From IMG/VR virus record IMGVR_UViG_3300044699_000112, positions 10,234-74,233 of that record: a DNA stretch of 64,000 bases; one strand, written 5' to 3'. Numbering within the stretch: position 1 is the stretch's first letter; each line of letters opens with the position of its first letter. Positions 27,401 through 63,037 of this stretch are shown one piece after another. This DNA is from a virus. The translations under genes and the position numbers were made by a program. The notes beneath the pieces are model-generated. The model was not told the DNA's origin. It did no database searches and saw only the letters and a program-made list of their open reading frames with translations.

Positions 27401-30400
27401 CGCTGGCCGACCTCGACTTCGCCGAAGTCGACCTGCCTCACCTGACTGAGCCGGAAGGAGCCCTGAGGGCCCGCCAGCCCCAGCAGCCCCCGCAGCAGCC
27501 ACAGACCACCCAGGCCCTGGCCACCACCACCCAGCAGCAGCAAGGCCAGCAGCAGAGCCAGCAGGGGCCGCAGCAGCCGCGAGGCGCCGGGCCCGGCGGC
27601 ACCGGCCCCACTGTCGCCCAACGCTTCGACCAGACCAACGCGGCGGCGGAGCACGCGCGCCAGTCTGACGAGAAGACGCGCATGGAAAAGTTCAAGGAGG
27701 GCATGAAGTTCATTGGCACGGCCTTCACGCGGCAGTTCCACCATATCCCCGCCGGTGCACTCTATGCCGAGTTCAAGCAGAAGCTGAACTTCGTTTCGAA
27801 GAGCCAGGGCAACGCGATCCACAAGGCGGCCCAGGCCATCATCGACCAGTTAGAGAAGCTCGACCCGGACGAGTACACTCAGTTCCTCCACGTGGTCCTC
27901 TACGACGATCTGGCCGCGCGCGTGATCCAGTCGATCAAAGAGAAAAAGCCGATACTCGCCAAGGACCTGCCGTTGGGCATCCAGGATGCCCGCGAGGTCA
28001 TCAACTTCAAGACCGAGGCCCGCAACCGCGTCCGCGGCAATCCCAAGATCGTCGAGGCGCTCCGGCAGCGCAAGGCCATGTGGGACAAGATCAAGCCCGA
28101 GTACGTCGCGGCCATGCGCAGGGCTGGCGTCGACGTGTCCAAGGCCGTGGCGCGCAAGGACTACTTCCGCCATCGCGTGATCAAGCACCAGAAGGCCAAG
28201 GAACTGATCGGCGGAGGCGGCACCGGCGCCGGTCAACGCTTCAAGCTGCCCACGGCGCGTAGCTGGATGAAGAAGGCCGAGGTCAACGCGAACACCTACT
28301 CGCTCGACTACATCCGCTCGGAGTTTGAAGTGCTCTCGGAGATGATGTACGACACCGAGCGCGCCAACTTCATCGGCTGGCTCAAGAACGACTCCGGGCA
28401 CAACATCTCTTCGCAACTGAAGCGGATGGCAGCGGCGCACAACAAGGCCGAAATCATGCCGACCTTCGCCCGCATGGCGCGCCACTACAACCAGAAGAAT
28501 CCCCGCGCCCCCAGGATGACCGCCGAGATGGCCTACCAGAAGGTCATGAAGATGCGGCCGCGGGATCCAAGCTGGCGCACGCGCGTCACCAAGCGGATGG
28601 CAGGCGCCGAGTACGTGGGGAGCCTCGAGGCGGCGTATAACAAACTGACGCTGCCCAACGGCAACAAGGCGCTCGATACCCACGCCCTCTATCAGGCCAA
28701 CGAGAAGGACCACTTCTTCCTGGCCGCGACCATCCCCGATTCGCTGGCGGCGGCGATCGAGGCCAACGGCCAGGGGCGGGTCACGGCCGACAAGATCCGG
28801 AAGATCAAAGCCAAGGGCGCCCGCCAGGGGCAGATGGTGCTGCCGCGCGAAGTCATCGAGACCATGAAGGAGTTCATGCAGCCCCCGAGCACCAAGTGGG
28901 GGCAGTTTGTCGACAAGTGGAGCCGCAAGCCGCTGGCGTGGTGGAAGCAGTCCAAGCTAATCCATCCGGTGGCGGTGATCAAGTACAACCTGCGGAACCT
29001 CTCAGGCGACCTCGAGCGCGTGCTGATCACCAACCCGTACGCCCTGAAGCACGTGGGGCGGTCGATGGATGAGATTCGCAAGTTCATGAAGACCGGCCAC
29101 CCGCCGAGCCCGGAGTTCGAGGCATGGTGGGAGCGCGGCGGCATGGACGCCAACCTCCAAGTGGCCGAGATCGGCGAGGTCAACCGGCTGCAGAAGCTCG
29201 TCCACCTCAAACTGAAGGATCCGAAACTGGGGCGGACCGAGAAGGGATTCGACAAGGCTGGTAAAGCCTGGGACGCCGTATGGAATACCACGAGGAAGAT
29301 GACCGACTTCCGCGAAGGGATCCTGCGCTACGCCACGTTCCTGGAATATCAGAAGCAGATCGCGGCCAGCGGGACCGGCAAGCCGAACAACTTCGGGGCC
29401 TCGATCCGCGAGGAAGTGATGGCGCTCCGGAACATGGACGACCGGGCGTACAAACTCTCGAACGACCTGATGCTCGCCTACGACGAGGTGAGCGTGGCCG
29501 GTCAGACGCTGCGCCGTCACTTCATCCCCTTCTGGTCGTTCCAGGAGAAGAACCTCGGGGCCTACAAGCGCATGGTGGTCAACTCCTACAAGGACGGGAG
29601 GACTTCGGCGGCGATCGGCTATGCCGCGCTCGGCGCCAGCGCCTCGGCCCTGCGCGTGGGCCTCTGGACCGCGGCGAAGATCGGCAAAACCCTGACCCTG
29701 GCGATGGCGCTCAAGGCACTCACCGAGATCTGGAACAACTATGTGATGGACGACGAGGAGGAGGATCTCCCCGAGGGCGTCAAGAAGTCGACCCACCTCA
29801 TCCTGGGCCGGGACTCCAACGGCAAGGTGATCGCGTTCACACGCCTGGGCACGGCCGACGACATCCTCGAATGGGGCGGCCTCGAAGCGGCGCCCTACTA
29901 CGTCAGGGAATTCCTCAACAACCGCATGACCTACGAGGATCTGGCCAAGGAGATCGCGCTCCGGCCGTTTGGCATCCCGCTGCCAATCAAACCGGCCATC
30001 AACAAGGTTGCGCAGAGCATCCATCCGGGGATCAAGACCACCGCCGAGTACGTCAGCGGCCGCGCTTGGTTCCCGAACGTCTTCGATCAGCGCGAGATTC
30101 GCGATCGCTACGAGTACATCGCCCGCGAGCTCGGCATGACCGCCGTCTACAAGGCAGCCGCCAGGAAGCCGCAGCCGAAGTTCTGGACGCCCGAGCGGGT
30201 CCTCGACCTGATGGTCTACCGCTACGATCCCAAGGAAACGCACTACAACTCCTTCAAGTACGACAAGGTGGCCAAGTGGGGCGCCGAGCATGGCGCCGAC
30301 CCAGGAGGGGGCCTCTCGCAGAAGAAGGCGGCCGCGGCGCTCTACGACCTCCGCATGGCCGTCCGGTACAACGATGACCGGGCGCGCGATGCGGCCCTCG

Positions 30401-30645
30401 TTGCGTACGGGGAGGCGGGCGGCACCCAGCAGAACCTGAAGAAGTCGATCGAGCGGCTCCATCCGCTCGGGACGTTGAAGAAGGCTCTGTGGAAGGACTT
30501 CGAGAAGTCGCTGAGCAAACCGGAAGCCGCTCAATTGAAAAAGGCTATACAGTTCTGGGAGGAAAACTTCCACTCCAAGGTGGCGCAGATTGAAGGCGCC
30601 GCTTCCCGGCAAGGTCTGCCGGAGAAAAGAAAGCGAGGAAAGTGA
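21409..30645 (+). CDS. Giant polyvalent internal virion (ejection) protein
   Basis: 3078 aa; N-terminal tandem AR.AGY.D.EI repeats; Gly/Ala-rich membrane segments; central enzyme-like domain; LPD38-like C-terminus (RRHFIPFWSFQ). Confidence 0.75.
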   Translation: MAINANSIDRARQAGYNDAEIIDHIASLKGYKGVPEARSAGYSDMEILGHLRTLEDPVSTPTVIPGAEKTGTPGIAPTTLPKGLGGGPAGYQPPTEEPSPYALPGAGLTGRPGIPEVELPVGLGGTKAPFSTAYDPYKRVGRALPNQVFGAPLKTDVGELAKLKAKVAPGYLPDDDTVLQGFMGEPKPEPLSEDPGYVERIQHGLRVGSEGVVSSALSGGEALARRAAVALPKKFKPIAERAEWELAQANAGRPEMEPMPGSSVQELAADSDLTLNKVGKYAVGSTAQAIPSIGATVIASMLPGGKIAGPALSYLMSVGELYENNVNKGVHPDEAATIAGLGGGPSAALDYLEPFRIKAALTGKTTKALIEETYKKLGILRRAGKATAEGLVESGTEMGQELIAILSEWYGTGKAPGLNESLWRLGESGAGAFGAGGIGGGVQQVSEARHNAGARAWQDYLEKEKAARAGVAPMAPGGPVPAPGAPAEAAPAEGEVPPPGAAPPGAAAAGPAADTAPPRPLFDSPEDLYQDATQFAGGFRQLGVTALSQKYGITKDEAHAILERFVEDGLFAAKPLKGGGVSYVNLALQREAREIDPATGQRIRSPITKKGALEEAAGQFIPPGEGAIAPGEGPAVEDEEAPLAAAPVIEQPRTEPPPLPTQQAPPPAQQEAPPQEAGPQPDQADLDMIYSAPLTQEQQAWAVELLGQGHSVEDAMEIAHRGEEAPAAPAPVQAKEEAPQRPEPLPSASEQAPPPAPAAPEVQQEPLAAAKLPEEQQAPAAQAPAPAVQEPLEAAKPPEQAAAPTGTPFDQAKEHARGNKAIKADELIQGFGLTADEAHNVLWDLYPARMRKEKAKAIAAERRSATIEARKAKAGQPEQKPGPTPAPWEMTLEEVNQTGYIARDVNAGNMPIVRPATIDAGTAASNASEHKRVVAEAVAQGKPVPAKVLAEYPDLVAIDPAVKAAIKRRERERAKAAQAAAPKTEQQEPLAAAKPPEQQQAPPPPTTQVAAPSTQVEQPLAAAKPIEKEAPSGTEAKAEEDFALPAGDESTGGQALQRGPTGGREGAPGGERREGGVQGRTAEAVEGKGELDFSDVPLKAVAKPSREGFLERLKAGDVRGMSVEVMGAVARGLVKAEDAAAHMVKTYGAKAKAYAKDVAAQVQEWEQNPARLEEMEASTALPKGKNKTVDPITGLAVTGYNNAIKDPSAFAKAIALMNKYVNFADINEATPEATAEKMIQRIVDNLLFLHDKYKELGFSERARLWYDGGRKKVLANAEEYGINEFQSAAVLAVFSPEKDWFQNVDMARRMLEWWKNRKTLKWTPQMDAIYVNKILPAKRNQDKNTAKKREAKYLKDRAEFPAKVAEWRKANREARLAGTARPKRPKRPERKPFEPSTKVTDALAAIQGKGASEIKSTYQQAVWFRLWDEAHNSRNYQIISPEGEYTGLAMTEAKEGKVGKGGKIGKAKEAKPAKVAWSSYNPMVKALMVLKDGSFENISRQVGQRHKVRNFYNNLLDPENPNGHVTSDTHAVAAGLMRPLGGSALEVEHNLGKGVASARTGESGTYWMFAEAYRRAARERHLLPREMQSITWEAVRGLYKNLKSKANKDRVVEIWNEVNSGKITPGEAREKIYKEFNGIDTPAWAGSGTGRGRDTAVDEGRGGAKDEEGVLRLRLPGPGSGGASVGGGGGGSPRGLAARVNEGIRKVGDALRARHPASTNAAIGASLAGSDYTFKTGPGQTGTVYANPAGIEFIGHLTNDPHIGGINLPGKSVDNVLTFIDSFVNGPNPNRAQLAKLQPLYEGMEKWRQANPGTDVSLNFAVLDNKRPFAWTRQTAREELIHGFQRLKQVTRAARETILKTPVFEKARLDLIRQGYGDDVEIRPGDTADEKAQKHFIAWMEITAKVLSGDTLGLTISEREDVAYAYREALIAEHGDDAVLVFRYLKAGSVKDVFLGKKLPGEGLQRAQADLQEGEAELQRLLKELQQILDEEKAKGGPLADLDFAEVDLPHLTEPEGALRARQPQQPPQQPQTTQALATTTQQQQGQQQSQQGPQQPRGAGPGGTGPTVAQRFDQTNAAAEHARQSDEKTRMEKFKEGMKFIGTAFTRQFHHIPAGALYAEFKQKLNFVSKSQGNAIHKAAQAIIDQLEKLDPDEYTQFLHVVLYDDLAARVIQSIKEKKPILAKDLPLGIQDAREVINFKTEARNRVRGNPKIVEALRQRKAMWDKIKPEYVAAMRRAGVDVSKAVARKDYFRHRVIKHQKAKELIGGGGTGAGQRFKLPTARSWMKKAEVNANTYSLDYIRSEFEVLSEMMYDTERANFIGWLKNDSGHNISSQLKRMAAAHNKAEIMPTFARMARHYNQKNPRAPRMTAEMAYQKVMKMRPRDPSWRTRVTKRMAGAEYVGSLEAAYNKLTLPNGNKALDTHALYQANEKDHFFLAATIPDSLAAAIEANGQGRVTADKIRKIKAKGARQGQMVLPREVIETMKEFMQPPSTKWGQFVDKWSRKPLAWWKQSKLIHPVAVIKYNLRNLSGDLERVLITNPYALKHVGRSMDEIRKFMKTGHPPSPEFEAWWERGGMDANLQVAEIGEVNRLQKLVHLKLKDPKLGRTEKGFDKAGKAWDAVWNTTRKMTDFREGILRYATFLEYQKQIAASGTGKPNNFGASIREEVMALRNMDDRAYKLSNDLMLAYDEVSVAGQTLRRHFIPFWSFQEKNLGAYKRMVVNSYKDGRTSAAIGYAALGASASALRVGLWTAAKIGKTLTLAMALKALTEIWNNYVMDDEEEDLPEGVKKSTHLILGRDSNGKVIAFTRLGTADDILEWGGLEAAPYYVREFLNNRMTYEDLAKEIALRPFGIPLPIKPAINKVAQSIHPGIKTTAEYVSGRAWFPNVFDQREIRDRYEYIARELGMTAVYKAAARKPQPKFWTPERVLDLMVYRYDPKETHYNSFKYDKVAKWGAEHGADPGGGLSQKKAAAALYDLRMAVRYNDDRARDAALVAYGEAGGTQQNLKKSIERLHPLGTLKKALWKDFEKSLSKPEAAQLKKAIQFWEENFHSKVAQIEGAASRQGLPEKRKRGK

Positions 30646-44070: not shown

Positions 44071-45404
44071 CAGAGCAAACCCTCCGAACCCTAAACCAAC
44101 TGCTTCCCAATTTGCCCGAGGCCGTTGAAACCGAGAAGCTGGTACTTGGAGTCCTCCTGGACGATCCGGACGCCACCAGCGCCATCCTGGCGCTAGAGCG
44201 GGACGATCTATACCTCGAGCAGCACAAGCGAATCCTCGATGCCGCCCGCTGGTGCGCCGACAACGGCCAAGAGGTCTCGCTCACCTCGGTCAGCCAGCGG
44301 CTCAGCGACATGCGCCACCTCGAAAGCGTGGGCGGCCTCTCCTACCTGAGCGGGCTGGTGATCGTGCCGAAGGTACTCGACCTCGAAAGCTACCTCGGCC
44401 ACCTGCGGCTCAAGTCCACGCTCCGGCGGGCCGCGATCGCCCATGCCAAGTTCGCCGAGGAGTGTTGCATGCCGGGCGCCGGTGCGGAAGTCCTGGCCTC
44501 GGCCGAGGTGTTTATGAGGGATCTCGGCTCTCGCGCCAGGACAAGGCCCGGCCCGCGCGGGTTTGAAGAGCTCCTCGACGCTGAGTATGGCGGCAGTTTT
44601 GCAAAATTCCTGGAGGCTCCCAAGCGTGCAGCCGTGCCGACTCCCTGGAAAAGTCTCAACAAGTTGCTGACCGGCGGCGGGTTCATGCCCGGCCAGTTGG
44701 TGGTGATCGGGGCCCTGCCGGGCCTGGGCAAGAGCGCCGCGGCGGCAATGATCGCCCGCTTCGCCGCCAGCCAGGGCGTGATCATCTTCTCGCTCGAGAT
44801 GGACGCTCGGGACATCTGGCTCCGCATGATTGCCTCGCACGCCGAAGTCCCCTTGCAACCGCTCAGCGAGGGCGTGAAATTCGAGGACGAGGCCGCCCGG
44901 CGCCGGATCGCGGCGGCCGGGAGCGAACTGTCCAAGTTCCCCCTGCGGATCGACGACTGGAGCGGATCGAACGTGGCGGCGATCATCGCGGCGGTCAAGC
45001 GGGTCAAGGAGGTCAAGCTCGTCATCGTCGACTACCTGCAACTCCTCAAGCCGCTGCACAAGGTGAGCAACCGCGTCGAAGCCGTGGGCGAGCTCAGCCG
45101 CGGCCTGAAGCTGGCCGCCAACGAGTTGAAGCTCCCGTTCGTGGTCCTCTCCCAACTCAACCGGGAGACCGCCAAGAACGACCGGCCACCGGAGCTCTAC
45201 GACCTGCGCGAATCTGGCTCCATCGAGCAGGACGCCAATACCGTGATGTTCCTGCACGCCAACCAGAAGGAGTTGCGTGCGGCGATCGACAACCACCGGC
45301 CCAACGAGATAGACCTGATTGTCCGCAAGCAGCGCAATGGCAGGACGGGGACCGTGAAACTTGTGTTCACGCCGTCCACGATGCGGATTGTAGAGGGGGC
45401 GTAG
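44067..45404 (+). CDS. dnaB: Replicative DNA helicase
   Basis: E..VLG, GALPGLGKS, FSLEM, VIVDYLQL, LSQLNR, DLRESGSIEQDA, KQRNG.TG. Confidence 0.95.
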   Translation: MTEQTLRTLNQLLPNLPEAVETEKLVLGVLLDDPDATSAILALERDDLYLEQHKRILDAARWCADNGQEVSLTSVSQRLSDMRHLESVGGLSYLSGLVIVPKVLDLESYLGHLRLKSTLRRAAIAHAKFAEECCMPGAGAEVLASAEVFMRDLGSRARTRPGPRGFEELLDAEYGGSFAKFLEAPKRAAVPTPWKSLNKLLTGGGFMPGQLVVIGALPGLGKSAAAAMIARFAASQGVIIFSLEMDARDIWLRMIASHAEVPLQPLSEGVKFEDEAARRRIAAAGSELSKFPLRIDDWSGSNVAAIIAAVKRVKEVKLVIVDYLQLLKPLHKVSNRVEAVGELSRGLKLAANELKLPFVVLSQLNRETAKNDRPPELYDLRESGSIEQDANTVMFLHANQKELRAAIDNHRPNEIDLIVRKQRNGRTGTVKLVFTPSTMRIVEGA

Positions 45405-45417
45405 GCCCCCATTTTTG
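45395..45417 (+). terminator. Rho-independent terminator candidate after dnaB
   Basis: GGGGGC-GTAG-GCCCCC followed by ATTTTT. Confidence 0.5.
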
Positions 45418-47435: not shown

Positions 47436-48070
47436 AGCGGCAGCCACTTCTCGAACCGCTTCACGGCCTTGTGCAGCGCCTCCAGCCCTCCCGCTTCGGT
47501 CCTCGCCACGGCTTCCAAAATGGGAAGTCCACTATCGATCGATGCCTGGACCTCGGCCCTGGTAGCCTCCCGTCCCTCGCAGATCCAGTCCACCGAAGAG
47601 GGCTCGCCCATCTGGATCAGCGGCCCCGTCTCCGTTTTGAAGACCTCGTACTCGCGGGTCAGCCAGAGCATGGCCACACCGGGGTTGCGGGCGATGACCA
47701 TACCGGCCGTGCCCTCGCGCAGCGTGTCGTTGTTGATCCGCTCGTCCTCGCGGCGCACCATCTTCGGGTTCGACAGGAACGGGCAGTTCTTCGCGCTCCA
47801 GGTGGCGCACTCGTAGTGCGAGGGCGGCTCGGACGAGGTGCGGTTGACGCCGCACATCGGCCCGGCCACGAAGACCTTCCAGATGCCCAGGCGCTCGCCG
47901 CAGACCCAGCAGAGCTTCTGCTTGATCGCGGCGACGAGCTTGTAGGGGTCCATCCCCCGGAACTCTGGTTTGCCGTCGAGATAGGGGACGAACCAGGGAA
48001 TGGGCAGCCCCGAGTCGGTGAGCTTGAGCGAGCGCATGCGCGCCGGTAGCGTTTCCATGTTGACGGTCAT
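47432..48070 (-). CDS. Conserved Cys-rich phage protein
   Basis: GLPIPWFV...LCWVCGERLG..FVAGP...EPPSHYECA.WS...CPFL. Confidence 0.65.
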   Translation of the reverse strand: MTVNMETLPARMRSLKLTDSGLPIPWFVPYLDGKPEFRGMDPYKLVAAIKQKLCWVCGERLGIWKVFVAGPMCGVNRTSSEPPSHYECATWSAKNCPFLSNPKMVRREDERINNDTLREGTAGMVIARNPGVAMLWLTREYEVFKTETGPLIQMGEPSSVDWICEGREATRAEVQASIDSGLPILEAVARTEAGGLEALHKAVKRFEKWLPL

Positions 48071-48879
48071 AACTTGATGTAGTCTCCTGCCGGATCCATC
48101 AGCAGGTCCACTGCCGACAGGTACCGGGACGTGGTCTGAATGCTGGCGTGTCCCAGGAACGCCTGGATGCCCTGGAGCTTGGCGCCGCCCTTGTGCGAGA
48201 GCGCGGCAGCCGTCCGCCGCAAGTCATGCGGAGCGAGCCGTGGCACGCCGATCCGCGCTCCCGCTGCCTTCACGATGGCATGCACGTGGTCAGCCGACAA
48301 TGCCTCCTCCATGACGTGGCCCCGGTAGGTGCGGCGCCAGACGGGCCCGGTGCGGATCGCGCCCGCGGCGAGCCACTCCTCGAGGAGCCCGGCCGTCCAT
48401 GAGTTGAGCGCGAGCGACCGCAGGCGGCGCCCTTTGCCCGTCAGGTCGGTGATGCAGAGGCGCCCTTCGAGCGTCTGCAGGTGCGAGCAGTCGAGCGAGA
48501 CGAGCTCGGCCCGGCGGAGCGCGGCGCCGCAGAGCATCCCGAGCAGCGCGCGGTTGCGCAGGCCCACCAGCGGCTCGCCGGGCTGGCGTTCGACGAGGGC
48601 CGACACCTGGGCCGCCGAGAGCCACGTGCCCAGACGCACGCCGCGGATCGGCATCGACTTGAGCTCCTGGATCTTCGGGTCGGCCTCCTCTGCCCTGGCC
48701 TTGAACTTCAACGCGCTGAGCTTGACGTTGCACGTGCTCGGAGCGGCGCCGTTGTCCCTGTAGTTGGCGATGTAGGCCCGCACGCCCTCGGCGGTCAGCG
48801 GGCCGTCGAAGTCGCGATAGACGGCCGCGTAGCGCGCCCGCGAGTGCGGACTGTTGAGGCTATCGAGATTTGCGTACAC
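48067..48879 (-). CDS. Tyrosine recombinase (XerC-like)
   Basis: Catalytic residues R (LRRAEL), K (GKG), HDLRR, LGH, and Y (TSRYL). Confidence 0.92.
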   Translation of the reverse strand: MYANLDSLNSPHSRARYAAVYRDFDGPLTAEGVRAYIANYRDNGAAPSTCNVKLSALKFKARAEEADPKIQELKSMPIRGVRLGTWLSAAQVSALVERQPGEPLVGLRNRALLGMLCGAALRRAELVSLDCSHLQTLEGRLCITDLTGKGRRLRSLALNSWTAGLLEEWLAAGAIRTGPVWRRTYRGHVMEEALSADHVHAIVKAAGARIGVPRLAPHDLRRTAAALSHKGGAKLQGIQAFLGHASIQTTSRYLSAVDLLMDPAGDYIKL

Positions 48880-52626: not shown

Positions 52627-53013
52627 TCATCGATTGCACTCGCAGTCATCCTTGCGCCGGGCGCACACCGGGCAGAAAATCTCCCAGGCCGAGCCCAGGT
52701 GCTCGGTCGGCCCAACGTAGACAATCACCGGCAACGGCTTCGGCGCCTCGTTAGCCGTCTGTACGTCAGCCGTCCGTTCGGCGTCCCTGTCGTCAGCAGC
52801 TTCCTGCTCCTCGATGGCCTCGAAGGTTCGCCCCTCGGCGAACCTCTCGAATGGATCGTCAGCCGTCTGTGGGTCAGCCGTCTGTAGGTGCAGCGGCGGC
52901 TCCGGCGCCCGAGCCGCCCCGGCGGCGGCCGCGGCCGCCGCCTTCCTGGCCGCCGCCGCCTTCCTGGCGTTAGCCGCCTGCCGCTCGAGAGCCGCGCGCT
53001 GCGCGTCCGTCAT
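52627..53013 (-). CDS. Hypothetical protein with QTAD repeats and Cys-rich tip
   Basis: GGGG RBS; CPVC...CEC. Confidence 0.5.
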   Translation of the reverse strand: MTDAQRAALERQAANARKAAAARKAAAAAAAGAARAPEPPLHLQTADPQTADDPFERFAEGRTFEAIEEQEAADDRDAERTADVQTANEAPKPLPVIVYVGPTEHLGSAWEIFCPVCARRKDDCECNR

Positions 53014-54006: not shown

Positions 54007-54067
54007 TCACCTCATTGGGAAATATCCCAGGAGTGGCGCTCTCGCGAACGCCCTCCCTGCGATGCTT
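54007..54067 (-). repeat. Structured intergenic element type A, copy 1
   Basis: Sense: AAGCATCGCAGGGAG-GGCG..CGCC-ACTCCTGGGATATTTCCC-AATGAGGTGA. Confidence 0.9.
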
Positions 54068-54920
54068 ACCGCCCAAACGGCTCGACGAAAATGGCGTACT
54101 CGCGCCCCTTGCCGATGCCTTCGATTGTGACCGTCTCGGGCGCGCCGTCCATCGCGAAGGCGTGCCACAAAAGGCCGGTCATCTCCTGGTTCCTGGCGAG
54201 CTCGACCAGGACGGAGGGGTCATCCCGATCCGGCTCGACGCGGTGGTACTTGCCGTCGCTGGTGGTGAACCACTCGAACAGGTAGGCGTTGACGTGGAAC
54301 TCGGCCGTGCCGATCTGCATCTTGGAGTAGAGCGACAACGGCGCGCCGTCCGTCCCTTCGACCGGCTCCAGGTTGACGCGCCACTCAAAGTCGTTCGCCT
54401 TGATGCGCACCAAGTCGTCCTCGTCGAACTCGCCAGCCGCCCGTCGAGGCTCGTTGTCTCCCTCCGGCGCCTGCGGATCGCAGATCGGGCAGATCCCGTC
54501 CTCGCCGCACTCACCGGCCTCGTGCGCGGCCTTCTGCTCGGCCTCCCCGATCCCCTTTTCGAGCTCCTTCCACGGACCGGCCTCGCTCCAGTAGTCCGAC
54601 ACGCGATCCGCAGCGGCCATCAACGGCTCCAGGTTCGTGTGATAGTCGCTGATCACGTCGTACCCATCGTTGCCATACACGAGCACCACCTCGCCGCGCA
54701 CGCCGAGCACCTCATCGAGGGGCCCGCGCCGGGCGCCCAGGTAGAGGCGGTCCATGTCCGTCGTCATCAGGGCGCCCATGATGGCCGCCTTGTCCTTGCT
54801 GTTCCAGAGCGTGACTTCCTCGCCGTCGTTCACGCTGATGTCATGGCCCGCCTGCAGGGCCGAATCCAGGAAGGCGCCAATCACTTGGCGCTCCACATAC
54901 TGCCGCATTCTCACATTCAT
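54066..54920 (-). CDS. Conserved accessory phage protein
   Basis: ISVNDGEE...VLVYGNDGYDVISDY motif; GAGGTGA RBS. Confidence 0.65.
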   Translation of the reverse strand: MNVRMRQYVERQVIGAFLDSALQAGHDISVNDGEEVTLWNSKDKAAIMGALMTTDMDRLYLGARRGPLDEVLGVRGEVVLVYGNDGYDVISDYHTNLEPLMAAADRVSDYWSEAGPWKELEKGIGEAEQKAAHEAGECGEDGICPICDPQAPEGDNEPRRAAGEFDEDDLVRIKANDFEWRVNLEPVEGTDGAPLSLYSKMQIGTAEFHVNAYLFEWFTTSDGKYHRVEPDRDDPSVLVELARNQEMTGLLWHAFAMDGAPETVTIEGIGKGREYAIFVEPFGR

Positions 54921-54924
54921 CGCT

Positions 54925-54996
54925 TCACCTCGTTCCTTTCGGGAAAATCTCCCACCGGCTGGCTCTGCTGCGACAGAGCCACCGGCGCGACGCTTT
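54925..54996 (-). repeat. Structured intergenic element type A, copy 2 (divergent)
   Basis: AAAGCGTCGC-GCCGG-TGGCTCTG..CAGAGCCA-G-CCGGT-GGGAGATTTTCCC. Confidence 0.8.
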
Positions 54997-55006
54997 CCTC
55001 TCGCTC

Positions 55007-55336
55007 TTACCGCCGCCAGAAGCAGGGCACCTTGCCCTGCGCGCACTTCGCCTGAAACTCGGCGTAGGCCCGCGCCTCGCGGCGCACGTCCTCGATCGCC
55101 TCGCTCGCCGCGGCCTCGGCCGCTTCGCACTCGGAGTCCGTCGCGCAGTCAGACCAGCAGGCCGCGCCGGAGCCCGCCCCCGGCCGCGGGAGCCTCACCT
55201 CCGTCTGGGCCTTCGCCCTGGCCGCCTGAGAGGCTGCAGGACGCCCGCGCACCGCGCCAGCCCCCACGGCCCCTACAGCCACCAGCAGGAGCCCCACGGC
55301 CCCCACGATCGCTCCCTCGGCCCAGCGGCGCCTCAC
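55007..55336 (-). CDS. Membrane-anchored small protein with CxTDSECE motif
   Basis: TM segment AIVGAVGLLLVAVGAVGA; WSDCATDSECEA. Confidence 0.55.
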   Translation of the reverse strand: MRRRWAEGAIVGAVGLLLVAVGAVGAGAVRGRPAASQAARAKAQTEVRLPRPGAGSGAACWSDCATDSECEAAEAAASEAIEDVRREARAYAEFQAKCAQGKVPCFWRR

Positions 55337-55632
55337 CGGCGCACCTCGGCCTTGTTTGGCCACGTCGCCTTGCCATAATGCGGCAGGCTCGCGGCCTCGG
55401 CCTCCGCCATCCGGTCGAGCACCTCCGATCGGGCGATGAGGCGCTGCGCCTCGCCGGTGTGGCGCTCATCGTGCGCCATCAGGAACCAGCCAGCCGCTTC
55501 GAGCAGCCCCTCGTGGCGCTGCGCGAGCTCGCGCCTGCGGCCGACTCTCGTCTCGGCCTTGATCTGGGCTTGCAGCCCGTTCACAACCCGGCTCAACTGC
55601 GCGAGCGGGTCGATATTCACGTACGTAATCAC
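55333..55632 (-). CDS. Hypothetical helical protein
   Basis: GTG start after GAGGTGA of element A3. Confidence 0.55.
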   Translation of the reverse strand: MITYVNIDPLAQLSRVVNGLQAQIKAETRVGRRRELAQRHEGLLEAAGWFLMAHDERHTGEAQRLIARSEVLDRMAEAEAASLPHYGKATWPNKAEVRR

Positions 55633-55634
55633 GT

Positions 55635-55706
55635 TCACCTCGTCATGGGAAATGTCCCAGGAGGAGCACGAGCTCGCAAGCTCGCGCCCTCCCTGCGATG
55701 CTTCCC
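55635..55706 (-). repeat. Structured intergenic element type A, copy 3
   Basis: GGGAAGCATCGCAGGGAGG-GCGCGAGCT..AGCTCGTGC-TCCTCCTGGGACATTTCCC. Confidence 0.9.
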
Positions 55707-55709
55707 GCA

Positions 55710-56024
55710 TCAGAACGGCAGGTCGTCGTCCGTCACCAGGGGTACCAGCGACTCCGGCGGCAGCTTGTCACCCGGCAGCGCGCCGTCCACGCCCGGCTTG
55801 AAGGGCGGGAACTCCAGGTCCCAGATGTTGTCGCCCTGGTCGTCGCCCTGATCGTCGTCCGGATGCCGCTGGCCCGGCACGTAGTGATCCGGGCACTTGT
55901 GGAGCGTGTCCACGTCGCTCAGGATCCAGCCCCCGCCGTGGCAGCGGCAGTCCTCGGCCGCGAGCCCTTCCGGCGTCGCCAGCCGGGCGCTGAACGCCTC
56001 GTAGTACTGCACCAATTCGCTCAT
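55710..56024 (-). CDS. Small Cys/His protein ending in an SSB-like DDDLPF tail
   Basis: CRCHGGGW.LSD.D..HKCP.H; C-terminus TDDDLPF. Confidence 0.65.
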   Translation of the reverse strand: MSELVQYYEAFSARLATPEGLAAEDCRCHGGGWILSDVDTLHKCPDHYVPGQRHPDDDQGDDQGDNIWDLEFPPFKPGVDGALPGDKLPPESLVPLVTDDDLPF

Positions 56025-56792
56025 CTCGTCCTCCATGCCGCCTCGTACGCGGCCCGCTCGTCATCGTCCATCGCCTCCAGCCGGGCGAGCTCGCGATCGC
56101 GCTCGCCAATCATCCGGCCCACCTCGGCCAGCAGCGTCACCGGGCCGGTCTCGGCCGTCGCGGCCTCCTCCCAGGGAGGCTCGCACCACTCGCAGTGGCA
56201 GTGGATGCTATGCCCGTCTCTCATCGCTTCACCTCCTCGCCGCTCGCGCACACGGCGAGCAATGGCAGTTCGTCCAGACCATCATTTCGGCCATCGCGTG
56301 CCACATGCACGCGCCCGTCGCCTGGATGCGGCCGCTGATGGCGAGGATCTCCGGCCGGGTCCAGTTGCCCGTCCCATCCGGCGCCACCGGCCACTGCTCC
56401 AGGTTGCCCCAGAACCGGGCGATAATCTCGCCCAGCGGCTGCCCCTTCAATCCCGTGCCCGCCGTCACCGGCCGCTTGAACGCCTTCGGGTCAGGTAGCG
56501 TCATCGCACGTCCCCTTCGTAGCTGCCACAGCAACCGCAGCAGGGCGCATCCTCGCATGTCCCCCTTGGCGTTGCGGTAGATCTCCGCGCCGGAGTTCAG
56601 CCGCACGTAGAAGCCGGTCCCCGCGGGCCGTCGACGGCCGCGCCGGGCGCCCACCATCGCGCGGGCCTCGGCCGCCTTCTCGGCAGGCACACGCCAGCCA
56701 CCGGCGCCGCGGTCCCACTCGCCACCCATAGCCCGGAGCTCGCGCTTCCAGGGGTAGGTGTTGCCAACCACCAACTCAGTCGTCATCCTCAC
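56021..56792 (-). other. Three small hypothetical genes (56021-56224; 56229-56504; ~56501-56792 with a frameshifted CEDAPCCGCC tip)
   Basis: GNTYPWKREL..MGG.WD....W (DUF5710-like) N-terminus; CHCEWC; RBSs present. Confidence 0.5.
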
Positions 56793-56865
56793 TCACCTCG
56801 TTCTCGCGATTGATTCGCGCCCGGTCCGCGGAGGCCCTCCCCCGCGGCCCGATGCGAGCCCTCAC
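56793..56865 (-). repeat. Structured intergenic element type B, copy 1 (divergent)
   Basis: CCGCGG..CCGCGG hairpin then CGCGAATCAATCGCGAGAACGAGGTGA. Confidence 0.7.
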
Positions 56866-56867
56866 TT

Positions 56868-57513
56868 TCAGTCCCTCGCCCTCGCCTTCGCCCGGTCCTC
56901 GGCCCGCCCTCTTTCGAGGCGCTGACGCGACTCCCAGGCCCGGTGCATGTCATGCAGCACCGTGCCCACGCCGAGCACGCTGAAGAAAATCAGCGGAATC
57001 CAGAACAGGTCCCAGCCGCTCATCGCTGGCCCCCCTTCTTCGCCTTCTTCGCGGCCAGCCGCTCTTCCCGCTCGGAGCGCGCCAGCAGCTTCGCCGCGAG
57101 ATCATACACGGCCTCGTAGGCCACCAGCAGCCGCCGCCGCGTGCCCTTGCGCCGGAGCTCAATGTGCCGCGGATGGAGCTCAATGAGCACCGTCCGGGCC
57201 CGTCCGCCGTCCCGCACCGAGACATCCGTCTCGCGCCGCACCGGACGATCGAGGCGCGTCATGCGCGCCACCCGTACGGGTCGTTCGCGTCGACGGCCCC
57301 GATCGCCTCCAGAGTCTTCTGGATCGGCCGCAGCCGCGCCAGCAGCGTGTGGCCCTCCAGGAACAGCGCGGCCGCATACGCATCGCCCGCCGTCTCGCGC
57401 ACCGTGCCCACGTAGAACCGTCCCTTGGGGCCCTTGCCGCTGCGCAGGAACTGCGCCCACTTCCCGGCGTGCGGGCCCTCGCCCACCTGCCGGATCGACT
57501 TCTTCGAAATCAT
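56868..57513 (-). other. Three small genes (56868-57023 single TM; 57020-57262 basic; 57259-57513)
   Basis: ATGA-coupled ORFs between elements B1 and B2. Confidence 0.55.
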
Positions 57514-57516
57514 CGT

Positions 57517-57587
57517 CCACCTCGTCTCGCGATAGATTCGCGTCAGGCGCCCGCGGCCTTGGCCGCAGGCCCTGCTCGTACCTCCCG
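57517..57587 (-). repeat. Structured intergenic element type B, copy 2
   Basis: GGAGGTACGAGCAGG-GCCTGCGGCC..GGCCGCGGGC-GCCTGACGCGAATCTATCGCGAGACGAGGTG. Confidence 0.85.
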
Positions 57588-57773
57588 CTACTCGTCCTCG
57601 TCGATCGGCTCATCCGACCAGTACTGCGAGTCCGTGAAGATGTCAGGCCGATACTTGGCCTTCGTCTTCGCCTCGCAGTCGTCGCAGACGTAGCCGCAGG
57701 GGATGCTGCGGGCGTCGTACAGGATCCAGCGCGGCTTGCCGGAGCCGCACCGGCACTCTTTGCCCTCGCTCAT
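57588..57773 (-). CDS. Small zinc-binding conserved phage protein
   Basis: CRCGSG...LYDARSI...VCDDC...YRPDIF. Confidence 0.65.
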   Translation of the reverse strand: MSEGKECRCGSGKPRWILYDARSIPCGYVCDDCEAKTKAKYRPDIFTDSQYWSDEPIDEDE

Positions 57774-58358
57774 CGCGCCCCCTCCGCCCGGAGAATCTCG
57801 ACCTCTTGCCGAGCCTCGTCCTCATCGTCGAAGCTCTGGGCGTCGTACTCGCCCGTGGCGTCCTCGACGATCCACTCGCGCTCGATGCCGTCGCCGTCCT
57901 CGATCCCGTGGATCGTGAACCGCTCGGCCTCCGGCTTGATCACCGGCCCGCGCCCGTTGATCCGGATCCCCTGCGGAGCGCCAAGCTCCCGCTCAGGCTC
58001 CGGCTTGGGCCCGTGCTCGCCGATCCGGATCACAAACTCGAGTCCCGGATACACCGACTCCATCTCCGCCCGCGCCTGCGTCAGCGCCCAGGCCGCGTGC
58101 TGCTCGGCCCGCCGGCGAGCTCCCAGGCCTCGACGTCCCCCAGGACGCCGCAGACCACAATCTCGACCTTGCCGAGGACGCTCATATCGTCACCCCGGCG
58201 TCGTCGAAGCGCATCTCGATCTGCTCCAGCAGATGCTCGGCCGCCCGCTGCTGCCGCAGGAAGTCCCCGGCCAGCCGCTGCCATGTCCCGGTCTCATCCA
58301 CCGGCCTGCCCTCGGGCGGCGTCAGGCACGTCTTGGCGTGCTTGGCGTTAATCGTCAT
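57770..58358 (-). other. Three small hypothetical genes (57770-58063, ~58060-58184, 58181-58358)
   Basis: Coupled ORFs; the first has a GAGGTGA RBS. Confidence 0.5.
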
Positions 58359-58373
58359 CGTTTCACCTCGTCT

Positions 58374-58537
58374 CGTTGAGTGGAGTGGACGAGCGCCGGT
58401 CAGGGAGCGGACCGCACCATTCCCAGGCGCGGCAGCGACTCATCTTGGCCTGATCTCGGGTTCGCTTTTCACCCTATCCGGCCCCCTGCGGTTTCTGCCG
58501 GAGCGTTACCTCCCCGGCGCTCGTCCACCCACTCACG
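58374..58537 (-). ncRNA. Candidate structured ncRNA / leader (multibranch, two pseudoknots)
   Basis: ~22-bp closing stem, three inner hairpins, loop complementarities ACCGCA/TGCGGT and AGCGA/TCGCT; no credible ORF. Confidence 0.6.
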
Positions 58538-58600
58538 TTCTCGCGATAGATTCGCGTCAGGAGCCTGCCATCGTGGGCAGGCCCTGCGTGTACCTTCCGC
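58538..58600 (-). repeat. Structured intergenic element type B, copy 3
   Basis: GGAAGGTACACGCAGG-GCCTGCC..GGCAGGC-TCCTGACGCGAATCTATCGCGAGAA. Confidence 0.85.
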
Positions 58601-58602
58601 CT

Positions 58603-59567
58603 TCAGCCGGTCACCTTCATCGCCCAGTGGGCCGCCAGCCGCGCCAGCCGCCGCGCTTGCCCGGCGTCCACGTCCTTGACCCAGTACACCGCCGCGCTGC
58701 CGTAGGCCCCGGCCTCGGCCAGGGCGTGCAGCGTGTACTCCGGCCGCGTCATCGTGGAGCGGCGGCTCGGAATCACCGCGAGCCGCATCTTGCGGCCGCC
58801 GCGCTCGATCACCACCGTCTCGGCCCGCTTCACCGGGCCACCACCGGCGCCGCCGCCAGGGCCTTCTCCAGCGTCCGGATCGCCCGGTCCACCTTCGCCA
58901 GGGCCCGCTCGGCCGCCGCCTGCGAATCCCCCGGCCCGTACCCGTCGCCCATCAGCGACGCCACGTTGTGCCCCCCGGGCCGCCTCGTCCACGAAACGAC
59001 GCGCCGCCAGCAGCGCGTTCAACATCTCCCGCTCCATCGCTACACCTCCTGCCATGACAGCATCGCTGCCAGCTTGTCCGACATCACCGCGGGCCGCACG
59101 CTCGAAAGCTCGACCCAGACGCGGCCGTCCCCGGCCACCGGCCGCACCAGCAGCCTGTTCTTCCCCCACGAGTTCTTCACGTCCTCGACTACGCAGTCGG
59201 ATCCAGAGCTCACCTCCGGATCCGGCCCGCAACTGCACCAGGGCGCCCACTGCCGGGCTCATCTCGACCGCCGTGTAGCGGGCCGCTCATGCGCCCACCA
59301 CCTTCGGACCGGCGTGCAGCTTGGCGGCAGGCCAGGATCATCTGCGCCGCCCGGTACATCGCCGCCGCGCTCGGCCTCTCGCCGCCCAGCGCCTCGATCG
59401 CGGCCACGAGGTTTGCCATACTCCAGGCGCATCAGTGCGCTTTCGAGTTGCTCGCCCTGGCCCTCGGCCTTGAGGCCAGTAAGTAAAGCCCCGGCCCGCT
59501 CGGCCTTGGCGGTCAGCAGTAGAGCTCGTCCCGCCTGCAAGTCCGCTTCCACCGTCTTCTTCGTCAT
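58603..59567 (-). other. About five small hypothetical genes, boundaries blurred by indels
   Basis: Starts at 59567, 59419, 59290, 59038 and ~58832, with coupled stop/start junctions. Confidence 0.4.
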
Positions 59568-59572
59568 GTCTT

Positions 59573-59637
59573 TCACCTCAGGGGAAATGTCCAGGAGTGG
59601 CATGCCTGCCCCGGCATGCCCTCCCTGCGATGCTTCC
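59573..59637 (-). repeat. Structured intergenic element type A, copy 4
   Basis: GGAAGCATCGCAGGGAG-GGCATGCC..GGCATGCC-ACTCCTGGACATTTCCCCTGAGGTGA. Confidence 0.9.
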
Positions 59638-59642
59638 GCCTC

Positions 59643-59969
59643 TTACGGCGTCATCGCTCCTCTTCGACCATCGGCACCTCCCGGCCGTACCAGTCGACCT
59701 CGGCCGGTGTGTAACCGGCCGTCCCGCTCAGCGCGCCAGGAGATCCAAACCGCCCCCGGCCCCGGCCGTCGCGCAGCCGTCCACCACGTTGCCAGCACAG
59801 CCGCGGCGCGCCCTGGTTCCCGCCCACCACGAACACCGCCGCGTTGCCGCCCGAGAGCAGCAGCACCGCCCTGGCGAAGTCCACCGCCTCGGCCGCCTTT
59901 CTTCTGCGAGGCGCCCTCGTAGGCCGTGTAGTACTGGCCGGGCGCGTTCACTGTCACACGAAATGTCAT
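59643..59969 (-). CDS. Single-gene cassette, hypothetical (indels)
   Basis: ATG after GAGGTGA of A5; stop abuts A4. Confidence 0.5.
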   Translation of the reverse strand: MTFRVTVNAPGQYYTAYEGASQKKGGRGGGLRQGGAAALGRQRGGVRGGREPGRAAAVLATWWTAARRPGPGAVWISWRAERDGRLHTGRGRLVRPGGADGRRGAMTP

Positions 59970-59973
59970 CGAA

Positions 59974-60030
59974 TCACCTCAGGGAAATGTCCCGCCAGGG
60001 GCTCGACAGAGCCCTCAGCGCGATGCTTCC
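59974..60030 (-). repeat. Structured intergenic element type A, copy 5
   Basis: GGAAGCATCGC-GCTG-AGGGCTC..GAGCCCC-TGGC-GGGACATTTCCCTGAGGTGA. Confidence 0.9.
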
Positions 60031-60315
60031 CTACGCCATCTCCTCGGGATCGACGAAGGCGCACAGTGCGCCATCGAAGTACCGGCGCCGCTCCTCGGGC
60101 GTCTGATCGTGCCAGCCGCTGGCCGCCCTTTGCGCTGGATGCTCCATCGCGTAAGGCCGCCTCGCACTCCAGCGAGTAGAGGCCCGTCCAGGACCACTCG
60201 CGCTTGAACTCCGGCCCACGCCCGCAGCGTCGCCATCGCGGCCTGTGACCGCCGCCACTGCTCGGGAGGCATCGCCTCCATCACCTTGCGCCAAATCGCC
60301 CGTTTCCATTGCCAT
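60031..60315 (-). CDS. Single-gene cassette, hypothetical (indels)
   Basis: ATG after A6; stop abuts A5. Confidence 0.5.
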   Translation of the reverse strand: MAMETGDLAQGDGGDASRAVAAVTGRDGDAAGVGRSSSASGPGRASTRWSARRPYAMEHPAQRAASGWHDQTPEERRRYFDGALCAFVDPEEMA

Positions 60316-60319
60316 ACCT

Positions 60320-60382
60320 TCACCTCGTGGGAAATGTCCCAGGGCGTGCTCTGCCTCCAGAGCACGGCCCGCGATGCTTCCC
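60320..60382 (-). repeat. Structured intergenic element type A, copy 6
   Basis: GGGAAGCATCGCGGGC-CGTGCTCTG..CAGAGCACG-CCCTGGGACATTTCCCACGAGGTGA. Confidence 0.9.
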
Positions 60383-60384
60383 GC

Positions 60385-60712
60385 CTACGCCAGCCGCCGA
60401 TACTTCGAGCTCGGCCGCCTCTACCGCCCGCCGCGCCGCAAATCACCTGGCGGTTAGTGCCCCACCTTCAACGCGAGGTCTCTCGGCGGTGTCCTCGGTG
60501 GTCACCACCTGATACCATGCGTATCCCGTGGGCTTGGCCTGCCCTTCCCGGTGCTCTACCTCAGTACGGCTCGCCGGGTGGATTGCACGGGTCGCACACC
60601 CACCAGAACGGCGTGAACGCCGCCCCCCACCACCGGCTCGTCGCCCCTGGTTCACCACCAGCCGGTATCCGCCTTCGGCTGCCCATGAGCCGTCGCAGAT
60701 CGTGTATGCCAT
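60385..60712 (-). CDS. Single-gene cassette, hypothetical (indels)
   Basis: ATG after A7; TAG at 60385-60387 abuts A6. Confidence 0.45.
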
Positions 60713-60722
60713 GTCTTCTCTC

Positions 60723-60782
60723 TCACCTCGTGGGAAATGTCCCAGGAGAAGGGCTCAGCGGAGCCCCTCCCTGCGATGCTTC
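60723..60782 (-). repeat. Structured intergenic element type A, copy 7
   Basis: GAAGCATCGCAGGGAG-GGGCTC..GAGCCC-TTCTCCTGGGACATTTCCCACGAGGTGA. Confidence 0.9.
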
Positions 60783-61418
60783 TACGCCTTCGCCCTGGCA
60801 GATCTCCGCCGGTCGATCGCGTCTCTCCATCCGATCGAGCTCCACCGCCGCCCCAGGCCTCCCTCGACCGCGGCATCCACCACCACCGGCTTCGTCCGTC
60901 ACCCGGCGTCGCCCAGGAGCGCCCGCACGTCCCGGGTCAAGCTCGGCGTTGCGCAGCCAACTCGGCCGCTTGGCCCGCTCTTTCACCAGCCTGCGCGCCG
61001 TGCTTGATGCCCGCCGCCTTCGCCCTTCGCCGTCCCAGTCCTTCACGTCCAGGCTGATCTCGGCCCAGTACTCGTGGCAGTCCGATCCCCGCCCGCTGCC
61101 AGCCGAGCGTCCCAGGGCTCGTCACCTGCTGCTTGCGCAGATCTCCGGCGGGTTCAACGAACGTGTCATCACGCCCAGAAACCCGTGCGCCTCGAAGTAC
61201 CCATCACGATCGCCTTGCCGATCGAGTTCTATCTCGATCACGGATCGCCTCGCCTACCGCGGGACCCGGGAACAGCGCGCTCCACAAGAGCTCCTCGCCG
61301 CCGCTCGTTCCGGTACCTGCGGAACGTCTGGCCCTCGATCCGTACCGTGCCATCAGCCACCGGCACGCGGTAATAAAGAACCGCTCACGGCATGTTCTTT
61401 CGTCGTTGTCTCAGTCAT
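60782..61418 (-). CDS. Cassette gene, hypothetical (multiple indels)
   Basis: ATG 61418 after A8; TAG at 60782-60784 abuts A7. Confidence 0.4.
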
Positions 61419-61423
61419 GTCTT

Positions 61424-61483
61424 TCACCTCGGGAATATGTCCCAGCGAAGGCACTCCAAACGAGTGCCCACGCCGCGCATGCT
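61424..61483 (-). repeat. Structured intergenic element type A, copy 8 (divergent)
   Basis: AGCATGCGCGGCG-TG-GGCACTC..GAGTGCC-TT-CGCTGGGACATATTCCCGAGGTGA. Confidence 0.8.
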
Positions 61484-61794
61484 GTGCCCACTCCCTAGCA
61501 GGTCTCGCCGTTCCGCCATCCGGGGCTCCCGGCCAGGGGTCGACCTCGCCCGCCGCCGCCGGGCAGCAGGCTGGCGAACGCCCCCGCCGCGCTTCCACCG
61601 CCCGGTCGACCACCTCGGCCAGATCGTCCGCCGTGATGTAGTCAATCCCGTCGCCCAGCACGTCCAGCGATCCACTGCGCCCGTCCACCGCCCGCACACC
61701 GCCGCTCGACGTCAATCTCCCAGCCCGTCCCCTGGCGCTCACTACGGACGTAGCCGCCCTCGATACTCACTCACTTGCCTCATGGCCATCAACC

Positions 61795-61860
61795 TCACCT
61801 CAGGGAAATGTCCCAGGAGTCGCTCAGGCCGCAGCCTGAGCCCTCCCTGCGATGCTTCCC
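61795..61860 (-). repeat. Structured intergenic element type A, copy 9
   Basis: GGGAAGCATCGCAGGGAGG-GCTCAGGC..GCCTGAGC-GACTCCTGGGACATTTCCCTGAGGTGA. Confidence 0.9.
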
Positions 61861-62720: not shown

Positions 62721-63037
62721 GGTCTCGCCTCGCATTCAGATTGTCAATCCGGTCCGGGCCGCCCTTGCAGTTCCCTTCCGGCTTCCCCGGCGCCTTTTTG
62801 CCCGCCGCCGCTTTCTGAGCGGTAAGTGGTACAGATGGCAACCGAGGCCGCTTGGTTACAGCAATTTTCAATTTAATTGAAAAGAATTTTAAGTGGTAAT
62901 CGTGTCAGATACTTGGCGCAAAGACTTTGTGACGCAAAGCGTTCCGCTGGGACTCGTAAATCGTTTTGCCCAAGAACCGCTCCGGCCCGCCGAGCTCGCC
63001 TGGCGCCGCCCCCCGCCGCTGCGCTACCCTCAGCCCA

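Follow-up and report, generated by a model that had tools for sequence, protein, structure and literature searches.

The early region of an uncultured soil phage, record IMGVR_UViG_3300044699_000112, contains 12 short folded elements, nine of a type called A and three of a type called B. Selection maintains their single-stranded fold on the sense strand, and the structure acts in the mRNA. The DNA analyzed, referred to as the window, is a stretch of 64,000 nucleotides corresponding to positions 10234-74233 of this 74,233-bp IMG/VR record, and coordinates are those of the window. The original prediction regarded the array as dividing the accessory region into cassettes, with a fold recognized for mRNA processing or translational control, or used as a recombination site for shuffling host-takeover genes; the selected RNA fold on the sense strand stands, whereas the shuffling role is not supported. 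The function tentatively preferred is punctuation of a long early message.

A selected fold on the sense strand

The genes between 46 and 64 kb are located on the minus strand, and the elements read likewise: all 12 occupy the minus (sense) strand between 54.0 and 61.9 kb and are found nowhere else in the 74-kb phage. Their number, places and common orientation are those first proposed. With a covariance model (CM) built from the nine type-A copies of this phage, a search of the whole 74-kb genome returned exactly these nine copies, with E values from 2e-18 to 2.5e-13, and no further match at E<=1. All 12 elements lie between a stop codon and a Shine-Dalgarno (SD) sequence and occupy the whole intergenic space, starting at the upstream stop codon and ending 0-14 nt short of the next SD. 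The nearest upstream stop codon, expected within ~15 nt, was measured at 0-11 nt from the element or overlapping its first bases; an N of the basal strand is often the T of a TAA stop, so that in many copies the helix base (GG-TAA-G) includes the stop codon. At the other end, the conserved block GGGANNYTTCCC is followed 0-14 nt later by a separate GAGGTGA. As had been noticed earlier, 11 of the 12 elements end in this ribosome-binding site, GAGGTG(A/G), 3-11 nt ahead of the start codon, and the exception, B3, runs into a structure at 58.4 kb.

For folding, each element was cut to begin 4 nt ahead of AAG and to end with the CCC run, and was compared with 200 shuffles. One long interrupted hairpin is both the minimum free energy (MFE) structure and the centroid in all 12 elements, with energies from -27.9 to -39.5 kcal/mol (z -3.1 to -6.5), and only 0-1 of the 200 shuffles were equally stable. 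The hairpin comprises 19-23 bp over 22-27 positions per strand, which is roughly two helical turns. Its apical 11-15 bp have a different sequence in every copy with the pairing maintained, and its basal half is conserved, with 5' GGNAAGYRYCGC opposite GGGANNYTTNCC. The basal pairs follow in the order GGG/CCC, AA/UU, G.U or G-C, a tandem mismatch (C.A/A.C in the present phage), UC/GA, the fixed G.G mismatch and, last, C-G, in agreement with the proposal that the flanks extend the stem with fixed mismatches. The small alternative hairpin suggested for the 3' block can also form, since GGGA/UCCC is paired in 97% of the cells of the alignment, with changes that are G.U-compatible only.

The type-B fold is like that of type A, with GCGG.AGGU paired with AUCU.UCGC, and both types have the 5' strand motif GCAYCG, or GGTACNNGCAGGG, in common. 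Type B is not, therefore, the wholly distinct sequence it had been taken for: the difference lies mainly in the 3' block, which is GGGA-CAUU-UCCC in type A and CGCGA-AUCNA-UCGCG in type B.

Relatives were found via pattern scans and the CM, and 34 distinct type-A copies were aligned (alignment A4, as distinct from element A4). The family has members in the sister phages G001 (73.2 kb; at least eight type-A and one type-B elements) and G002 (73.8 kb; at least seven type A and one type B), in G005, G006, G007 and G008, in G003 with one copy, and in the soil metagenome contigs L051-L058. When IMG/VR was scanned with a loose pattern, most of the matches were single ones due to chance, and only G005, G006, G007 and G008 were real relatives. 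All relatives' copies that were taken whole have the same long hairpin as their MFE structure; at least six further copies were extracted only in part.

The claim that the central hairpin varies in sequence, pairs nonetheless and covaries is borne out by this alignment. Eight of the nine scored apical pairs have changes on both sides, and the cells with double changes number 53, versus 16.6+-3.6 in shuffles, none of which (0/500) reached this count. Sliding the partner columns lowers the apical pairing from 94% to 43-66%. Further support for a fold in RNA was provided by the comparison of the two strands: in 31 of the 34 copies, the more stable fold is that of the sense strand (mean -21.3 vs -18.4 kcal/mol for the antisense, Wilcoxon p 4e-6), and G.U pairs outnumber A.C appositions by 47 to 5. 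Because the sense strand is the better folder and G.U pairs are in excess, the structure is one selected on the mRNA strand. As to the basal half, for which the support is weaker, cognate 5' and 3' strands pair better than shuffled 5' strands in nine of ten classes, type B included, and in divergent copies positions 4 and 5 are paired via changes on both sides (GAGAGUC/GAUUCUU, GAGUGUC/GAUACUU and GGAAGUA/UACUUCC).

In the four sister phages, the elements are confined to the small-gene early region, stand only between stop codon and SD, and have one orientation. A capsid-like protein (5327-6583, plus strand) is 90-94% identical in these four phages, whereas their early genes are 50-60% identical at the protein level, reordered, or unrelated; the array thus sits in a hyperplastic region. 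More generally, evolutionary rates vary sharply along the genome, as seen for the capsid-like protein, a tyrosine recombinase and the early genes. The cassette genes are ORFans, Pfam and PHROGs having been uninformative for 20 proteins of this phage and one sister phage.

Individual copies and quality of the record

The elements are listed in Table 1 together with an AT-rich block at the head of the operon. The places confirmed for the type-A copies end 3 nt short of those in the table, at 54007-54067, 54925-54995, 55635-55703, 59573-59635, 59974-60028, 60320-60379, 60723-60781, 61424-61484 and 61795-61857. The family is absent from Rfam, with no match at the gathering score over the window and none at E<=1 over 53.5-64 kb, and the full element pattern occurs in none of 185,579 bacterial species representatives.

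Table 1. Elements of the array and the AT-rich block upstream of it, in window coordinates; energies and z scores refer to the long hairpin
Feature	Type	Position	Strand	CM score (bits)	Energy (kcal/mol)	z	Remarks
A1	A	54007..54070	(-)	73.9	-27.9	-3.7	GG-TAA-G (stop in helix base) to GAGGTGA
A2	A	54925..54998	(-)	55.5	-38.3	-6.5	9-nt spacer before SD
A3	A	55635..55706	(-)	69.7	-39.5	-5.6	
B1	B	56793..56867	(-)		-36.3	-3.2	small inverted repeat 56805-56819; SD 56793-56799
B2	B	57517..57587	(-)		-35.0	-3.8	small inverted repeat 57528-57542; SD GAGGTGG 57517-57523
B3	B	58542..58602	(-)		-33.2	-4.6	small inverted repeat 58542-58556; without own SD
A4	A	59573..59638	(-)	61.1		-3.5	in error-rich stretch
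A5	A	59974..60031	(-)	67		-4.0	shortest apical stem
A6	A	60320..60382	(-)	70.9	-35.5	-5.2	
A7	A	60723..60784	(-)	66.6		-3.1	
A8	A	61424..61487	(-)	60.2			
A9	A	61795..61860	(-)	71	-37	-5.3	first of array in sense direction
AT-rich promoter-like block TTGAAAATTGCTGTAAC		62855-62871	(-)				operon head; alignment of three leaders; unique in window

Some copies can be followed into the relatives. The apical hairpin sequence of A2 is found again in contig L051 and in a G001 copy, and A3 has its orthologue in the G002 element at sense position 7048. A5 comes after a gene with a homologue in G001, where this homologue precedes the copy at L046:4603, and the apical sequence of the two copies is partly shared. 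Strain variants in the stem of A7 (places 60749-60763) preserve the pairing.

B3 is continued by a structured insert of ~165 nt, after which the usual CGAGACGAGGTGA tail appears at about 58361-58375. This insert (58376-58541, minus strand), located between CGCGAGAACG and the CGAGACGAGGTGA tail, is very stable: a 190-nt stretch containing it folds at -95.5 kcal/mol. A GAGA(A)CG direct repeat borders it on both sides, in the manner of an insertion, and no homologue of it was present in the relatives' loci retrieved. About 1.3 kb past the array, a short hairpin at 52674-52699 (minus strand), followed by GGGAGATTTTCT, resembles the 3' block of A2 and may be a decayed element copy or a terminator.

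The record itself is not free of errors. Its head (positions 1-764) recurs at its tail with 0 mismatches and 11 indels; this repeat is a circular assembly overlap and reveals an indel-type error rate above 1%. Contigs from four soil metagenomes, each belonging to a different study, cover the region 53.5-63 kb contiguously. Over 53.5-58.35 kb, these contigs differ from the window by no letter and by four gaps, whereas from 58.4 to 63 kb roughly 100 single bases of the window are missing from them (91 gaps in 3.5 kb for one contig). The window thus carries ~100 spurious 1-base insertions in the latter stretch, which is why open reading frames there look broken by false frameshifts. The deviant 3' block of A4, GGACATTTCCCC, is possibly an error of the homopolymer type. 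For A8, 61434 A>G and 61436 T>A in the contigs of all four metagenomes restore the consensus GGGAAATGTCCC, and its deviant letters are most likely window errors.

Near-identical sequence is present in soil runs of at least 10 studies. Among GenBank phages, there was no nucleotide match to this phage and no match to a structural protein either, and the phage DnaB is only ~34% identical to those of Microbacterium and Listeria phages, a value that does not indicate the host.

Candidate functions

Punctuation of the mRNA, by a cutting or stabilizing signal of the RNase III type as in the T7 early transcript, is the function to which the most weight is given, with a confidence that stays somewhat below even. 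It is suggested by the shape of the fold: a two-turn helix with internal mismatches is a substrate in which enzymes of the RNase III type cleave a single strand. For RNase III, the ideal substrate has 22 bp, internal loops lead to single-strand cleavage and to 3' stabilizer hairpins, and the ~7-kb early precursor of T7 carries five such signals (PMC3867540). By analogy, the elements would be cis-acting RNA structures within a long early transcript of the sense strand, whose helix would be recognized by a double-strand-specific host endonuclease, RNase III or an equivalent. The internal mismatches would restrict cutting; the upstream message would be left with a protective 3' hairpin, and the downstream message would begin just before its ribosome-binding site, as with the five T7 signals. 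Types A and B would perhaps represent two recognition or timing classes. As a by-product, the repeated units of ~60 nt might act as homology patches for occasional recombination.

Several points weigh against punctuation by an enzyme of this kind. No RNA run is among the listed runs with near-identical phage sequence. Pairing within the basal helix extends to only 79% of the cells, with mismatches at positions 4 and 5 in most copies. The alternative pairings of the 3' block, as a small hairpin or with the SD, may mean that other conformers are the active ones. Finally, the conservation of CGC, UGGGA and UUCCC exceeds what a reader of double helices like RNase III needs; together with the G.G mismatch, these invariant letters suggest an additional, sequence-specific reader.

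A single early transcript would agree with the promoter-like sites seen, since none of them is internal to an element and one AT-rich block stands at the operon head. This block (Table 1), ~300 nt ahead of the first conserved early gene, has a partly conserved counterpart in G001 and a similar but looser one in G002; it is a candidate for the single early promoter, followed by a long structured leader. The opposite arrangement, with a terminator-like stem-loop and a promoter for the host or phage polymerase in each element and every cassette as its own transcription unit, is quite improbable. Its layout has a precedent in the PeSL units, where a stem-loop, a conserved block and a ribosome-binding site precede ORFan genes in a hyperplastic region (PMC4122927, PMC2839356), and the 3' block fits TGnGAnnnT, loosely an extended -10-like motif. 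However, no element contains a -35/-10 (sigma-70-like) match, and the only promoter-like site in 53.5-64 kb (63819-63792) is outside all of them. A start site set by a -10 in the 3' block would land in or at the SD in the spacerless copies. The conserved blocks are short, with variable distances among them and to the SD, and the 3' blocks of both types have the character of RNA, being inverted repeats with loops of variable length and G.U-compatible changes only.

The hairpins are equally unlike terminators, as a U-tract after them is absent and UGGGA stands next to every one. No sense-strand site in the array combines a GC-rich hairpin with a U-tract, and terminator-like sites are not above chance anywhere scanned in the window. 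The one convincing site of this sort that was seen, a canonical GC hairpin with a T-run at the end of the DnaB gene (45395-45410, plus strand), does not resemble the array hairpins. Neither a phage sigma-70 region 2 nor a phage-encoded RNase III gene was found in the genome; a search for a T7-like RNA polymerase (Pfam family) gave no match, and its control was silent too, so that this result is uninformative.

Hairpin promoters of the N4 type, served by a virion RNA polymerase, were considered as well and rejected. The 3078-aa virion protein (21409-30645, plus strand) is without a PDB or Pfam match, and its protein-atlas features are nearest to the polyvalent families LPD38, DUF7178 and ART-PolyVal; a resemblance to a polyvalent protein, and not to a polymerase, is a lead only. 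Residues 1481-1599 of this protein have one PHROG match, to which no function is assigned.

The position of the elements next to stop codons could also serve translation. The ribosome terminating at the upstream gene would melt the 5' strand, and refolding would mask or unmask the downstream SD, thus coupling each gene to its upstream neighbor. This possibility is unlikely, even though several features of the alignment fit it. Anti-SD-like strings occur in both flanks (5' YRYC, 3' YAYUUY): in 96.5% of the cells, positions 4-7 of the 5' flank are able to pair with the GGUG of the SD, and all 13 variant cells that keep this pairing are transitions. For the 3' block and GAGGUG, the corresponding figure is 90.9%. 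The 3' block has three mutually exclusive partners, and the stop codon overlaps the helix base in many copies. Ensemble folding, however, gave mean probabilities of only 0.11 for the SD paired with the 5' flank and 0.17 for the SD paired with the 3' block, and the SD accessibility, 0.53 for the natural flank, became 0.50 when the flank was shuffled and 0.56 when it was deleted, no difference being significant. In addition, an invariant SD makes two-sided covariation impossible, the transition excess is non-significant once a realistic transition bias is assumed, and the copies are not independent of one another. An SD-masking switch is therefore possible on paper and not supported by the modeling. 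An anti-SD closing helix that would form a three-way junction was likewise rejected: the geometry allows it, but in ensemble folding the SD was not masked and the 5' flank made no difference.

A more elaborate scheme, and an improbable one, would unite processing and translation in a three-state RNA switch anchored at the stop codon. The 3' block would pair with the 5' strand, with itself or with the SD, the state being set by whether a ribosome is terminating in the helix base. The translation of each early gene would then gate the next cutting or initiation, with two different factors, possibly phage-encoded, reading types A and B as two timing classes in one operon.

Very improbable, in turn, is the view that the folded elements serve mainly for cassette shuffling, as attC-like substrates of a conserved tyrosine recombinase or as hot spots of homologous exchange. 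Such a recombinase is encoded ~5 kb downstream (48067-48879, minus strand) and is conserved in all three complete sister phages with 53-62% identity; its conservation permits a site-specific role without indicating one. Breakpoints were compared, by our own count and in a small sample, in three metagenome contigs ~90-97% identical to G002. Three razor-sharp mosaic junctions among these close relatives of G002 fall exactly at element edges, at the 5' edge in L053 and L052 and right after GAGGTGAA in L055. Moreover, one orthologous junction carries a type-B element here (B1) and a type-A element in contig L054 (L054:1192-1253). This junction lies upstream of the gene-18 homologue, where G001 and G002 are without an element.

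The other 10 of the 13 breakpoints, however, are at plain gene junctions or inside genes, and include clean single-gene indels and one 820-nt insertion. As 8 of roughly 30 junctions carry elements, 3 of 13 breakpoints at their edges is no enrichment. Genes are gained and lost inside the supposed cassettes between G000 and G002, single genes turn over without an element, and such turnover at plain junctions is equally frequent, so that the proposed mobile cassette system finds no support. Excision or deletion joints were looked for in the four soil metagenomes: the array order is identical in all of their contigs, and the only two excision or deletion joints listed are of low depth with short sides and probably derive from the relatives' elements, neither being convincing. 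Moreover, the flanks GGNAAGYRYCGC and GGGANNYTTNCC are not core boxes of the attC R/L type. The 284-aa gene at 54066-54920 (minus strand) looks chimeric, its N-terminal part resembling G002 gene 21 and its C-terminal part gene 27; the two stand 3 kb apart in G002.

If confirmed, the elements would form a clean structured-RNA family worth cataloguing, with two types and with real covariation among at least 34 distinct copies, and they would show how a high-GC soil phage organizes the expression of its fast-evolving host-takeover genes. The conserved, G.G-containing helix base could indicate a specific RNA-binding partner.

Comparison with known systems

That the elements match no known family, as was claimed at the outset, holds at the level of sequence: apart from the empty Rfam search, they are not sequence members of the T7 sites, the PeSLs, the start-associated sequences (SAS) and ESAS, or the attC sites. 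The family falls outside SAS/ESAS by their defining sequence and outside PeSL by the promoter that defines it, and it has no homology to the T7 signals.

The core sites of integron attC are RYYYAAC and GTTRRRY, which pair as R and L boxes. Like attC sites, the elements are imperfect hairpins with a variable center and a conserved, mismatch-bearing base, located downstream of promoterless genes in one orientation and with a tyrosine recombinase nearby. In contrast to attC sites, they have no R''/L''-L'/R' core boxes, fold better on the sense strand, are bypassed by genes that turn over independently, and yield no supported excision joints in the four soil metagenomes.

The PeSLs of T4-type phages are also repeated stem-loop units before ORFan genes in a hyperplastic region, and some mosaic junctions fall exactly at the units in both cases. 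However, PeSLs carry a sigma-70 early promoter, TTGACA-N17-TATAAT or variants of it (PMC4122927), which the elements described here lack, and breakpoints are not enriched at the latter (3/13 in a small sample).

Each genome of the Cluster K mycobacteriophages carries 11-19 copies of the SAS/ESAS, which share one orientation, are limited to the nonstructural half and stand immediately before start codons; the SAS have a conserved block bracketed by GGG...CCC, about half of the copies have an upstream inverted repeat, and the function was still without an experimental test in 2025 (PMC3203893, PMC12699233). The many copies, the single orientation and the restriction to the nonstructural half are shared with the present family, as are the place ahead of start codons and the GGG...CCC-bracketed block. 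The SAS, however, is a 13-mer, GGGATAGGAGCCC, at the position of the ribosome-binding site, 3-7 bp before the start codon (PMC3203893), and thus includes the SD, whereas here the block GGGANNYTTCCC precedes a separate GAGGTGA. The arms of ESAS are conserved 17-mers with a 4-13 bp spacer, as opposed to the hypervariable apical stem found here, in which only the base is conserved. The array therefore offers a second, independent case beside the still-unexplained SAS/ESAS.

The closest parallel is that with the T7 RNase III signals R0.3, R0.5, R1, R1.1 and R1.3. In both phages, several related hairpins with one orientation lie in an early multigene region, each directly after a stop codon and directly before the next ribosome-binding site, and each about two helical turns long and interrupted by internal loops or mismatches (19-23 bp here versus a criterion of ~20-22 bp). 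The Bs-RNase III sites of the SP82 and SPO1 early RNAs are a further case of processing signals in early transcripts. The expected product, a 3' stabilizer hairpin on the upstream piece, is the one described for T7 (PMC3867540) and is predicted here. Unlike the T7 signals, to which they have no sequence similarity, the elements number 12 copies in 8 kb, against five in 7 kb in T7; their basal sequence is strongly conserved and includes a fixed G.G mismatch, two types coexist, and the stop codon is often within the helix. What had been called undescribed is thus so as a sequence family, which is new and uncatalogued, whereas the kind of signal, the punctuation of early operons by hairpins, is one already familiar in phage T7.

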